From: Candidatus Fervidifonticultor sextus
GTDB lineage: Bacteria > Sysuimicrobiota > Sysuimicrobiia > Sysuimicrobiales > Humicultoraceae
NCBI GenBank assembly: GCA_031459875.1
Contig: JAVKHQ010000028.1
Location: 1-33,856 of the forward strand
Direction of reading: 5' to 3'
DNA: 33,856 nt
The position numbers were made by a program, and so were the translations under genes. The notes under the pieces were generated by a model, which did no database searches, was not told where the DNA came from, and was given only the letters and a program-made list of their open reading frames with translations. Below, piece after piece: positions 894-4,417 of the stretch (positions are counted from its first letter, which is position 1; each line of letters opens with the position of its first letter).

Positions 894-1709
894 ATGACCC
901 CTGAGCGGCCACCACCCTCTCCGTCCGGCCCGGCGCCGGCTGGCGCTGGCGGACCGGACGGCGCCGTCGTGGCCGTCCGCAACCTGTGGAAGCGCTTTGG
1001 GGAGGTCACGGCCCTGGCCGGCGTCTCCCTCCAGGTCCAGCGGGGTGAGATCCAGGTGATCATGGGGCCCAGCGGCTGCGGCAAGAGCGTGCTGCTCAAA
1101 CACCTGGTGGGACTGCTGCGGCCTGACCACGGCGAGGTGCTGGTGTTCGGCCGGCCGGTCCACGCCCTGCCGGACGACGAGCTGGACGCCCTGCGCATCC
1201 GGGTGGGCGTGGTGTTCCAGTCGGGCGCCCTGTTCGACTCGCTCAGCGTGGGGGAGAACGTGGCGTTTCCCCTGCGGCGGCACCTCAGGCTTCCCCCCGA
1301 GGCGATCGCCCGCCGGGTGGCGGCGCTGCTGGCCATGGTGGAGATGGCCGGGACCGAGACCCTGATGCCGTCGGCGCTGTCCGGGGGTATGCGCAAGCGG
1401 GTGGGCATCGCGCGGGCGCTGGCGCTGGATCCGGCGCTCATCCTCTATGACGAGCCCACCAGCGGGCTGGACCCGCTCACGGCGCGCACCGTGGACGACC
1501 TGGTGCGCCGGCTGCGCGCCGACCTCGGCGTGACCTCGGTGGTGGTCACCCACAGCGTGGACTCCGCCTTCTACCTGGCGGACCGGCTCGCGGTCATGGA
1601 CGCCGGCCGGTTCACCGCGGTGGGCACACCGCGGGACATCCTGGCGTCTTTGGATCCGTTCGTCCGGAAGTTCTTGGAGACGCGGACCGTCGAGGTGACC
1701 CCCAGATGA
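894..1709 (+). CDS. mlaF: MlaF-family ABC ATP-binding protein
   Basis: Walker A GPSGCGKS, Q-loop VFQSGALFDSL, signature LSGGMRKRV, Walker B YDEPTSGLDP, H-loop VTH; lies between mlaE and an MCE gene. Confidence 0.93.
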   Translation: MTPERPPPSPSGPAPAGAGGPDGAVVAVRNLWKRFGEVTALAGVSLQVQRGEIQVIMGPSGCGKSVLLKHLVGLLRPDHGEVLVFGRPVHALPDDELDALRIRVGVVFQSGALFDSLSVGENVAFPLRRHLRLPPEAIARRVAALLAMVEMAGTETLMPSALSGGMRKRVGIARALALDPALILYDEPTSGLDPLTARTVDDLVRRLRADLGVTSVVVTHSVDSAFYLADRLAVMDAGRFTAVGTPRDILASLDPFVRKFLETRTVEVTPR

Positions 1710-3082
1710 GTCTGGAAGTGAAAGCCGCCCTGAGCGGCATCCTGATCGTCGTGCTGCTGTTCCTCTCCATTGCCTTCCTGCGGGGGAAGCTGGACTTCCG
1801 CGACCGCACCTACGAGATCCGCGTGCGCGTCGTGAACGCGGGGGGCATGCAGCGGGGCGCGCCGGTCCTCATGGCCGGCATCAAGATCGGCGAGGTCCGG
1901 TGGCTCGACCTGACCGCGCACCAGCAGGCCGAGATCACGCTGCGCATCGACGAAGACCGGAAGATCCCACGCGGATCGCGGTTTGTCATCGGCACCCAGG
2001 GGCTGCTGGGGGATCGGTTCATCGCCATCACTCCGGGGCCAGCGGATGCGCCGCCGATGGAGCCCGGCGAGATCATCGCGGGCGAGGACCCGTTCACCGT
2101 CGAGGCCCTCTTCGACCGCGTGGTCTCCGTCGCCCGCCGGGCCGAAGACCTGCTGGCCAACCTCAACCGGCTGATCAGCGACCCCGGGCTGGCGCGGGAA
2201 GTCAGCGAGACGGTGCGCCACGCCCGCGACGCGACCCTGGTGATGCGACGCGCCGCCGAGAACGTCGAGCACATCACCCAGACCATCGAGCGCTCCACAC
2301 GGGTCCTGGACCGGACCATGGCGGCCGAGGTGCCGGCCATCGCCCGACAACTGCACACCATGGCCACCGAGCTGGCCGCCGCCGCAGGGGATGTCCGGGG
2401 CCTGGTGGGGGACCTGGCCGCCGGGGGCCAGACGGCACAGCAAATCCGCTCGACGGTGGCCTCCATCGAGCGCGCGGCGCAGGGCATCGAGAAGATGGTG
2501 CGCGACCTCCAGGGCGTGGTGAACGAGCAGGAGGTCGGGGCACTCCGGGCCTCGCTGGCCGAGGCCCGGAGTGCCATCACCGAAGCCCGCCAGGCGGTGG
2601 GCGAGGGCCGGGCGGTGATCGGCCGCGCCGACGCGGTCGTCCAGCGCGTGCAGCGGCTGATCCCCGAGCGGCTCGACCTCCCCGGCCTGACGGCGCCGGT
2701 CCGGCTGGAGTACGGGCTCTGGTACGATGGACAGCGGCTCGGCCAGGACGTCACCCTCACGCTCCAACCCGAGGCGGCGCGGTCGTTCATCTTCATGCTG
2801 CGCGAGGCCGGCGGGGCCAACCGGGTGGGCCTGCAGGTCGGCAGTCGGCTGGATGCCTCGTGGAGTGTGCGCTACGGCCTGATCGACTCCCACCTGGGGG
2901 TCGGACTGGACTACCGAGCCTCGCCCTCCATGCTGTACATGATGGATCTCTACAACATCAACCAGCTCACCGCCAACGTCTACCTGCGCTACGCCCTCAC
3001 GCCGGACTACGGCCTGACCCTGCGGGCGGTCGACCTGCTGCGGACCACCACGCTGGGGGTGGGCCTCTCCCGAAGGTTCTGA
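1706..3082 (+). CDS. mlaD: MCE/MlaD protein with long helical region and predicted C-terminal beta-barrel
   Basis: N-terminal TM, MCE motifs ([33 protein letters not shown]), ~190 aa Ala/Glu/Arg helical segment, alternating-pattern strands ending [12 protein letters not shown] overlap with mlaF. Confidence 0.88.
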
Positions 3083-3115
3083 GCGCGCCGCCGACCGCAC
3101 CGGGCACCGGTTCCG

Positions 3116-3150
3116 AAAAATCAAGAGAGCACTGCGCGCGCAGTGCTCCC
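3116..3150 (-). terminator. Intrinsic terminator, possibly bidirectional between the convergent units
   Basis: Perfect 22-bp palindrome GAGCACTGCGCGCGCAGTGCTC at 3127..3148, followed on the minus strand by TCTTGATTTTT. Confidence 0.75.
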
Positions 3151-3173
3151 CGTCGATCGGAAGCGGCCGCGGG

Positions 3174-3212
3174 CTACTTGCCCTTCTTCTTGGCCGCCTT
3201 CTTCTTCGCCAC
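3174..3212 (-). CDS. Putative 12-aa lysine-rich micropeptide [12 protein letters not shown]
   Basis: GTG GCG AAG AAG AAG GCG GCC AAG AAG AAG GGC AAG TAG; every third position is G/C; GGAGAGGGGG lies 8 nt upstream; promoter-like motif upstream and terminator downstream. Confidence 0.6.
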
Positions 3213-3281
3213 GCTGCTCGCCCCCTCTCCGGAGCTGACGTCACGGACGGATCGCGTCCCGTCCGGCCTTCGGGTGCGACT

Positions 3282-3308
3282 ATTCGCGAGCCGACGACGT
3301 TTTCCTGC
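3282..3308 (-). promoter_or_regulatory. SigH-like promoter upstream of the micro-ORF
   Basis: Minus strand GCAGGAAAA-14 nt-GAAT resembles the Bacillus/Clostridium SigH consensus (RnAGGAwWW-N11/12-RnnGAAT). Confidence 0.45.
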
Positions 3309-3325
3309 CGCGCGGGAGGTTTTTT

Positions 3326-4417
3326 CTACGATGACGCGCGCATGGCGGCGCGAAAGGCGTCGACGACTGCCGGCAGGTCCGACGGCGTCACGTGCCGGTG
3401 GGTCACCAGACGGAGATGGCTGGCATCCACCACGCCCACCCGCACGCCGTGCTCGCCCAGGGCCGTCGCGACCGCCCGGGCATCCCGACCGCTCACCCGG
3501 ATGCGCACCATGTTGGTCTGGACCCGCGCCAGGTCAATCTCCAGCCCGGGGATGCCGACCAGGGCTTCCGCCAGGCGGCGGGCCAGGCGGTGGTCGTCGG
3601 CCAGCCGCTCCACCATCTCCTCCAGCGCCACGATGCCGGCCGCGGCCAGCACGCCGGCCTGCCGCATGCCGCCTCCGACCATCTTGCGGAACCGCCGGGC
3701 CTGCGCGATGAAGGGGCGGGGGCCGCAGAGCACCGACCCGACCGGCGCCGACAGGCCTTTGGAGAGGCAGAACGTCACGGAGTCGGCCGCGGCGGCCAGC
3801 CTGGCCGCCGGCACGCCCAGCGCCACGGCCGCGTTGAAGATCCTGGCACCGTCCATGTGGACGCGGAGGCCATGGCGGTGGGCGACCTCGGCCAGGTCGT
3901 CGATGGCCTCCGGCGGCACGGCGATCCCGCCGTGGCGGTTGTGCGTATTCTCCACGCAGACCAGGCGGGTCGGCGGGAAGTGCAGATCGGGCGGCCGCAA
4001 CGCCGCCTCCAGTTGCGCACCGCTGATGTACCCCCACTGGGTCGGCAGCGCCCGCGGCATGACCCCGGCGAGGGTGGCGATGGACCCGGCCTCGTGGATC
4101 AGGGTGTGGGCCTGGTCGTCCAGGACCACCTCGTCGCCCCGCTGGGTGTGGGCCATCACCGCCACCAGGTTGGCCATCGTGCCCGACGGGACGAACAGGG
4201 CCGCGTCCTTGGCCAGCCGCTGGGCCGCCATCGCCTCCAGCCGGCTGACGCTGGGATCCTCGCCGTACACGTCGTCGCCGACCTCGGCGCGGGCCATCGC
4301 CTCCCGCATGGCCTCGGTGGGCAGGGTGACGGTGTCGGAGCGCAGGTCGATGGCGCGCGCGGGCTCGGGGCCCCTGCGGATCGGCGCCGTAGATGCCCGA
4401 GGACGACTAGGCCTCAT
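3326..4417 (-). CDS. ltaE: Low-specificity L-threonine aldolase (PLP-dependent); exact start uncertain
   Basis: [45 protein letters not shown] lysine in [20 protein letters not shown]. Confidence 0.92.

Follow-up and report, generated by a model that had tools for sequence, protein, structure and literature searches.

Lysine- and alanine-rich sequences resembling histone H1 are carried by chlamydial Hc1/Hc2 and by the tail of mycobacterial HupB. Bacterial histone-H1-like Lys/Ala(/Pro) repeats likewise make up the C-terminal domains of the proteins AlgP and PhaF (PMC11894788); such domains are disordered polycations which bind DNA and, in the case of AlgP, also polyphosphate granules. They prefer lysine over arginine even in high-GC genomes, and their repeats number in the tens and are borne by folded proteins of at least 100 residues. 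Small, flexible, multivalent amine cations of another kind are spermidine and spermine, with charges of +3 or +4. Tiny ribosomal proteins such as bTHX, bL37, and eL41 have 24-56 residues with a conserved, Arg-rich, non-repetitive sequence, and each is encoded by a single gene. Such proteins, bS22 and bL38 included, bind RNA, are extremely small and basic, and often escape annotation. Attenuator leaders of the trpL/hisL type combine a short ORF, a run of one codon, and a terminator that follows at once, and peTrpL, with only 14 residues, is reported to be trans-acting, so that a small size does not preclude such a role.

The micro-gene described here lies on the minus strand of a 33.9-kb window, the whole stretch of DNA that was analysed, in the gap between two flanking ORFs (Table 1). 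It is a real, conserved, multi-copy gene that is unannotated in this genome. Like the H1-like domains, its product is of low complexity, consists of Lys and Ala, and prefers Lys over Arg; however, the whole gene amounts to one or two 'repeats' (9-20 codons) and is present in several copies. Basic Lys/Ala repeats of low complexity are found in the 91 distinct ORFs collected below, whereas many tandem repeats joined to a folded domain are not, the ORFs having 9-28 codons and no other domain. It resembles the tiny ribosomal proteins in being very short and very basic, but its variants of 20-29 residues match no profile of such proteins. By analogy with spermidine and spermine, the peptide would be expected to neutralise nucleic-acid phosphate; unlike them, it is gene-encoded and would be made by ribosomes, with a charge of about +7.

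Table 1. Features of the micro-gene and its surroundings in the window, listed in the direction of its transcription.
Feature	Position	Strand	Remarks
Beta_elim_lyase (threonine-aldolase-like) ORF	4417..3326	-	upstream flank; 371 bits (Pfam typing)
Gap between the flanking ORFs	3083..3325		243 nt
Terminator-like hairpin CCTGCCGCGCGGGAGG, then TTTTTT	3301-3325	+	adjoins the minus-strand lyase stop
Upstream box GCAGGAAAA	3300..3308	-	conserved; candidate promoter element or leader start
Upstream box CGCGAATA	3281..3288	-	conserved, CGAAT invariant; putative -10-like element
5' leader stem-loop, GGACGG-loop-CCGTCC	3245..3264	-	sequence and centroid fold
Shine-Dalgarno GGAGAGGGGG	3221..3230	-	8 nt spacer, then GTG at 3212
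Micro-ORF, GTG..TAG	3174..3212	-	12 codons and stop (TAG at 3176..3174); coding signature
Intrinsic terminator: stem GGGGAGCACTGCGC/GCGCAGTGCTCTCT, then TGATTTTT	3116..3151	-	stem 3151..3124; 12 pairs (7 G-C), loop of 4
MlaD-domain ORF	1706..3082	+	downstream flank; 70 bits; convergent with the micro-gene

The earlier note, made from the sequence of the window, had proposed a promoter-like motif followed by a leader stem-loop, a Shine-Dalgarno (SD) sequence, a 12-codon ORF with its stop, and a terminator, and all of these except the first were found in that order. A sigma-70 consensus scan of 2900..3600 found no promoter; two conserved boxes lie upstream instead, which may act as the promoter of the micro-gene. 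Read from its start, the ORF consists of GTG, GCG, three AAG, GCG, GCC, three AAG, GGC, AAG, and TAG, so that 7 of its 12 codons are AAG (Lys). Beyond its terminator the sole gene is the convergent MlaD ORF. The minus-strand terminator adjoins the MlaD stop as the plus-strand hairpin adjoins the lyase stop, and the two terminators thus 'cross'; a transcript reading through from MlaD would therefore lie antisense to the micro-gene. At the site of the lyase-side hairpin, orthologues mostly show a minus-strand T-run instead.

The micro-ORF is not a chance occurrence. The window contains two occurrences of AAGAAGAAG, both of them within the micro-ORF, against an expectation of 0.01, and two occurrences were obtained in 0 of 100 shuffles of the window. 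Across the genome (3.05 Mb, 70% GC), 57,440 ORFs have 8-41 codons, and only two of these contain at least 40% Lys, namely the micro-ORF and a paralog on contig C26, and a six-frame scan found at least six Lys per 12 residues at these two places only. The earlier note had likewise called the lysine-codon run unexpected in such GC-rich noncoding DNA. Likely genes of the same genome (GC3-filtered frames) contain 1.6% Lys against 9.8% Arg, and end with TGA in 53%, TAG in 42%, and TAA in 5%.

Of 41 related genomes, 28 have a match to the 243-nt gap, the best-conserved stretch of which is the ORF. In all 21 distinct loci of this comparison (L001-L021), the SD, the start, and a Lys/Ala ORF of 10-20 codons are retained. 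The frame-agnostic pattern AAGAAG, gap, AAGAAGAAG, gap, TAR was then applied to a phylum set of 94 genomes, all from one order, and it matched 60 of them: 28/33 in family f1, 21/22 in f2, 6/12 in f5, 1/23 in f4, and 1/1 in each of f3, f6, and f7. These counts are an undercount, since the pattern is based on AAG and scored f4 at 1/23, yet f4 genomes of genus g15 are carriers. When five f4 genomes were re-examined, both g15 genomes carried a Lys micro-ORF, one of them being MAKKKKAASKKKR, and the three others (g23, g29) gave larger proteins only, or no match. Overall, 116 instances were extracted, 91 of them distinct, with 9-28 codons and modes at 12 and 14; a genome usually has about 2-5 copies. 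Among the 91 units, L009, L165, and L194 stem from an unpublished genome (G022); in addition, a single BLAST row is from genome G013 and a single out-of-frame pattern match from G172, and the conclusions rest on none of these. Two Lys micro-ORFs stand in tandem at L217 (G056:C146) and at L219 (G034:C104), separated by about 50 nt and each preceded by a separate SD; the pairs resemble bicistronic micro-operons, and a terminator follows one of them. MAGs labelled Ca. Fervidifonticultor, the closest named organisms among the matches listed, carry the same units and belong to the uncultured phylum Ca. Sysuimicrobiota; its taxonomy and habitat are treated in PMC11604079, which also states that public metatranscriptomes of enrichment cultures exist.

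The copies occupy different gene contexts, as established by Pfam typing of the neighbours. Copy 1, that of the window, always follows the lyase gene, and MlaD lies opposite it in all seven loci with a typed downstream ORF (L001, L003, L007, L009, L010, L012, and L013); at L020 the lyase side alone was identified. Copy 2, the paralog on C26, has an SLH+SPOR gene on its divergent side and the gene for an acyl-CoA dehydrogenase on the side that it faces (L021, L016). A third context lies between the genes for MR_MLE and NAPRTase (L017). The gene after the micro-gene is convergent in all three typed contexts (MlaD, acyl-CoA dehydrogenase, and NAPRTase).

The ORFs carry a clear coding signature, and the view that the micro-gene is self-contained is supported. 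An SD-like motif of the GGAGG- or GGGGG-type precedes the start in 116/116 instances, and among the 91 distinct units the start is GTG in 59, ATG in 30, and TTG in 2, and the stop is TAA in 50, TAG in 41, and TGA in none. Since the pattern required a TAR stop, a TGA version was run as a control; its 15 matches, spread over 11 of the 94 genomes, were mostly out-of-frame overlaps of the same genes and included no micro-ORF with a TGA end. Both gaps of the frame-agnostic pattern are multiples of three in 67 of 69 distinct places, where chance would give 1 in 9. For copy 2, 18 of 21 distinct units, spread across several genera, encode the identical peptide, and their ORFs vary at six sites, all of which are third codon positions and synonymous; other same-peptide clusters add three further synonymous sites. 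When ORFs were clustered solely on length and upstream identity, different peptides fell together, and the resulting 46 'non-synonymous' columns are whole-codon swaps, either of Lys and Ala or, at the C-terminus, of Lys and Arg. The same-peptide clusters are the only informative ones. There, variation is synonymous, and the comparison of sequences indicates purifying selection at the level of the peptide.

The 91 distinct ORFs contain 684 Lys codons (AAG 662, AAA 22), 252 Ala, 66 Gly, and 30 Arg, the last mostly C-terminal, and AKKA-type strings occur among their peptides. AAA makes up 3% of the Lys codons in the micro-ORFs versus 12% genome-wide. Set against genome use, these counts show that Lys (not Arg) and small residues are kept against the genome bias.

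Outside the ORF, several RNA-level elements are conserved as well. The distal box GCAGGAAAA reads (G)CAGGAAA in most copy-1 orthologues, and paralog classes have AGGAGAA/AGGAAAA at an equal distance from a CGAA(C/T) box; of the proximal box CGCGAATA, columns C17, G18, A19, A20, and T21 are invariant in the 15/15 copy-1 sequences of alignment A1. The copy-1 leader stem-loop keeps its place with differing sequences in 16 of 20 units (judged by eye), and scripted folding of the leader, in which the L009 and L014 segments were badly cut, gave z below -1 in 10/20 units with a mean z of -0.99. This stem-loop is too variable for MAFFT alignment and is therefore absent from the RNAalifold prediction. 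The copy-1 terminator stem GGGAGCACTGC/GC(A/G)GTGCTCTC is invariant in the 15/15 aligned orthologues while its loop varies, and no covariation was found in the stem among these 15. In a paralog class common to f1 and f2 the leader is invariant, GGTGGCGAAC preceding the hairpin GACGG/CCGTC in 22/22 units, and a CUUCC tract of this class might pair with the SD. The constraint on leader and terminator indicates that the RNA itself also matters, and the invariant elements are candidate new regulatory RNA motifs. A third leader class, in f2 (L222, L223, L226, L230, L232, L235, L238, L241, and similar loci), has a conserved 5' region, about 100 nt long, that appears to be structured and is of the form …GGTGCAC…GTGCACC GGCGCGCTGAG…CGGTGCGCGATCAC…GCGCGAAGGGGGGA; this class, which is without an Rfam match, is a candidate new cis-regulatory RNA.

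The fold of the whole transcript is modest (z = -1.81). Among the Rfam 15 covariance models, the best match over the unit had an E of 0.46 and covered the terminator hairpin only, and nothing was found over the units of 11 related loci; a known non-coding RNA family, which would have argued against the interpretation of the earlier note, is thus not apparent in these searches. A search of sequencing runs listed no RNA run as a carrier. The one RNA-library run of the same study, searched with the copy-2 locus at 80% likeness, gave a 780-nt contig of a relative at depth 6; it covers the 3' end of the acyl-CoA dehydrogenase gene together with the micro-gene, and its end lies some 50 nt upstream of the start codon (L021:1300-1600). 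It is a weak hint of transcription, as RNA-library contigs may contain DNA. A second, low-depth contig from the RNA library at L021 has an in-frame GGC insertion within the ORF.

In the interpretation that we prefer, to which we give a probability of about one half, this is a free-standing, translated micro-gene whose peptide is a small mobile polycation binding polyanions (rRNA and ribosomes, RNA, DNA). Transcription would be driven by its own upstream signals and yield an RNA of about 155-160 nt, comprising the 5' stem-loop, the strong SD, the 12-codon ORF, and the intrinsic terminator. The product would be a Lys/Ala peptide of 12 residues, probably 11 after removal of Met, with a net charge of about +7, in effect a single stand-alone repeat of the histone-H1-like 'AKKA' tails. 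Judged from its composition, it may associate electrostatically with rRNA and ribosomes, other RNA, or DNA. Non-specific or semi-specific binding is favoured, since copy 1 and the f2 units drift in length and residue order, several copies exist, and the composition is H1-like. The micro-gene may be highly expressed, and its structured leader, if it has a role, probably stabilises the mRNA or serves feedback control. As rapid degradation is the usual fate of short unstructured peptides, a bulk role would demand very high synthesis. An account by the peptide only also leaves unexplained the constraint on the RNA (terminator 15/15, leader 22/22). With regard to polyphosphate as a partner, PPK1 had no match in the genome, which is 96% complete.

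If the peptide is instead a dedicated ribosomal micro-protein, it would occupy one rRNA pocket in one copy per ribosome, as bTHX, bL37, bS22, and eL41 do; we regard this as a serious rival, though an unlikely one. The extreme basic charge and tiny size would suit it, and the enrichment of TAA together with a strong SD is often seen in highly expressed genes of translation. In addition, the identity of the copy-2 peptide, with changes that are synonymous, is tighter than a non-specific counter-ion needs and therefore points to a defined binding site. That such sequences do serve in ribosomes is indicated by uS13 of Coriobacteriia, which has GAKKKGK at its C-terminus (71 of the 120 loci listed). 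However, length (9-20 codons) and the order of Lys and Ala drift freely in copy 1 and f2, the peptide has neither Arg nor aromatic residues as anchors, a genome carries 2-5 copies of the gene, and no ribosomal genes are neighbours in the three typed contexts. The 20-29-residue variants have no Pfam or NCBIfam match, bar a weak HypB_prefix_1 row. Replacement of bS21 was rejected, because bS21 is present in the genome (68 bits). A 12-mer stays within the ribosome exit tunnel until release, and it is conceivable, at a very low probability, that the nascent or just-released peptide acts there, lingering on the rRNA of the tunnel and modulating its own ribosome. The short ORF, stops (TAA/TAG) that are all readable by RF1, and what is generally known of the length and charge of the tunnel would agree with this, but AAG-encoded lysine runs are not known to act as strong arrest signals in bacteria.

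Two further alternatives place the function in the RNA. A translation-coupled regulatory RNA, in which the Lys codons report the charging of Lys-tRNA or the supply of ribosomes and the RNA is the effector, with a dual function like that of rnTrpL/peTrpL, appears improbable. Since Lys is rare in the genome (1.6%), 7 Lys codons in 12 would make a sensitive sensor, and the terminator directly after the ORF, the invariance of leader and terminator at the RNA level, and a candidate CCGCC/GGCGG pairing in copy 2 could be read in its favour; the last, noted by eye, would join CCGCC just past the stop to GGCGG in the left terminator arm. On the other hand, a downstream co-directional gene is absent in the three typed contexts, the convergent partner differs among the copies so that they have no common antisense target, and Ala and Gly together supply about 85% of the codons other than Lys, a restriction not needed by a pure codon sensor. 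The other alternative is a non-coding small RNA with an incidental ORF, the A/G-rich tract of which would bind a protein such as Hfq; we consider it highly improbable. Hfq binds an A-R-N motif, a repeat that (AAG)n fits, the genome has an Hfq-like match just below the cut-off (26.7 bits versus 27), and the hairpin sequences are conserved. However, of the traits of an Hfq-dependent small RNA (a binding tract, an Hfq gene, and no coding signature), the last is contradicted by the strong coding signature: an SD and an in-frame start in 91/91 distinct units, in-frame TAA/TAG and never TGA, gaps of whole codons, and synonymous-only variation among the 18 same-peptide copy-2 ORFs. There is also no Rfam match.

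Two more specific ideas about the micro-gene can be judged from its neighbours and its genome. A ribosome-mediated attenuator leader was considered, since a codon run for one amino acid and a terminator after the ORF are both present. Unlike leaders of the trpL/hisL type, however, the micro-gene has no operon downstream, and since no co-directional gene follows it, a cis-acting leader is ruled out in the three typed contexts; the earlier note had reached the same conclusion for the copy in the window. Its suggestion of a genetically encoded polyamine substitute fares less well, because the genome retains polyamine synthase genes: the spermidine/spermine synthase family is matched four times, at up to 191 bits. 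At most, the peptide would thus supplement polyamines.

The micro-peptide had also been put forward as undescribed, and our literature search agrees, since no description of a stand-alone polylysine micro-gene was found; in the main text of the sORFdb paper the word 'lysine' is absent (PMC11796252). The 12-mer itself is below the 20-residue minimum of profile tools, and four longer variants of 20-29 residues stood in for it. Pfam gave no match to these at E up to 10, and NCBIfam gave nothing for three of them; the fourth, an ORF from Planctomycetales, had a weak HypB_prefix_1 row (E 0.039, 15.3 bits versus a cut-off of 30). Because genes of 10-14 codons are invisible to gene callers and protein databases, a conserved, multi-copy component may be unannotated throughout these phyla.

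It is possible, although we hold it only tentatively, that oligolysines of 9-20 residues, encoded by genes of their own, are an overlooked and widespread class of bacterial micro-proteins. These would act as a tunable macromolecular counter-ion of ribosomes and nucleic acids, at a level set by conserved structured leaders that would sense polycation, Mg2+, or temperature status. With the same reserve, such genes might be among the smallest conserved free-standing genes, with several copies per Ca. Sysuimicrobiota genome, and the look-alikes in Acidobacteriota, Planctomycetota, and Verrucomicrobiota could perhaps belong to the class. If the peptide is an abundant polycation or a ribosome component, views of the charge balance, ribosome composition, and nucleoid organisation of uncultured lineages would have to be revised, and polyamines would gain a counterpart made by ribosomes.

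A global scan for proteins ending in ...AKKKGK-stop gave at least 120 loci, a number which is not a measure of distribution. Among the matches listed, 71/120 are the C-terminus of uS13 from Coriobacteriia and related Actinomycetota MAGs (within L023-L142); this protein ends in ...RKGPRRQ(I/V)GAKKKGK, and its last seven residues match the C-terminus of the micro-peptide, even by codon. A further 31/120 of the listed matches are ends of other, larger ORFs, and 18/120 are stand-alone micro-ORFs, Sysuimicrobiota included. Look-alikes were confirmed in Acidobacteriota, Planctomycetota, and Verrucomicrobiota; among the matches listed, an acidobacterial micro-ORF has a TTGACA-N17-TATACA promoter and a terminator, and the other stand-alone micro-ORFs include those of Phycisphaerales (20 codons), Planctomycetales (29), and Opitutaceae (28). 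Homology between the phyla cannot be shown, as the sequences are of low complexity and the leaders differ.

In one acidobacterial class, the pattern matched 50 of 101 sampled genomes, control counts there being substantial too. Of 40 places inspected, 35 are in this class, and 10 of these 35 are micro-ORF candidates; one of the ten, L304, was rejected as an artefact of the start rule within a frame of 510 codons. In L036, a Planctomycetales MAG, the 29-codon ORF joins a Cys-rich head to a Lys/Ala tail. Longer proteins with AKKA/PAKKAAKK repeats were encountered in Acidobacteria only (L279, 135 residues; L306, 77 residues), and there is a continuum of sizes, with Lys ORFs of 14-27 codons in the sampled Acidobacteria beside AKKA-repeat proteins of 77-135 residues.
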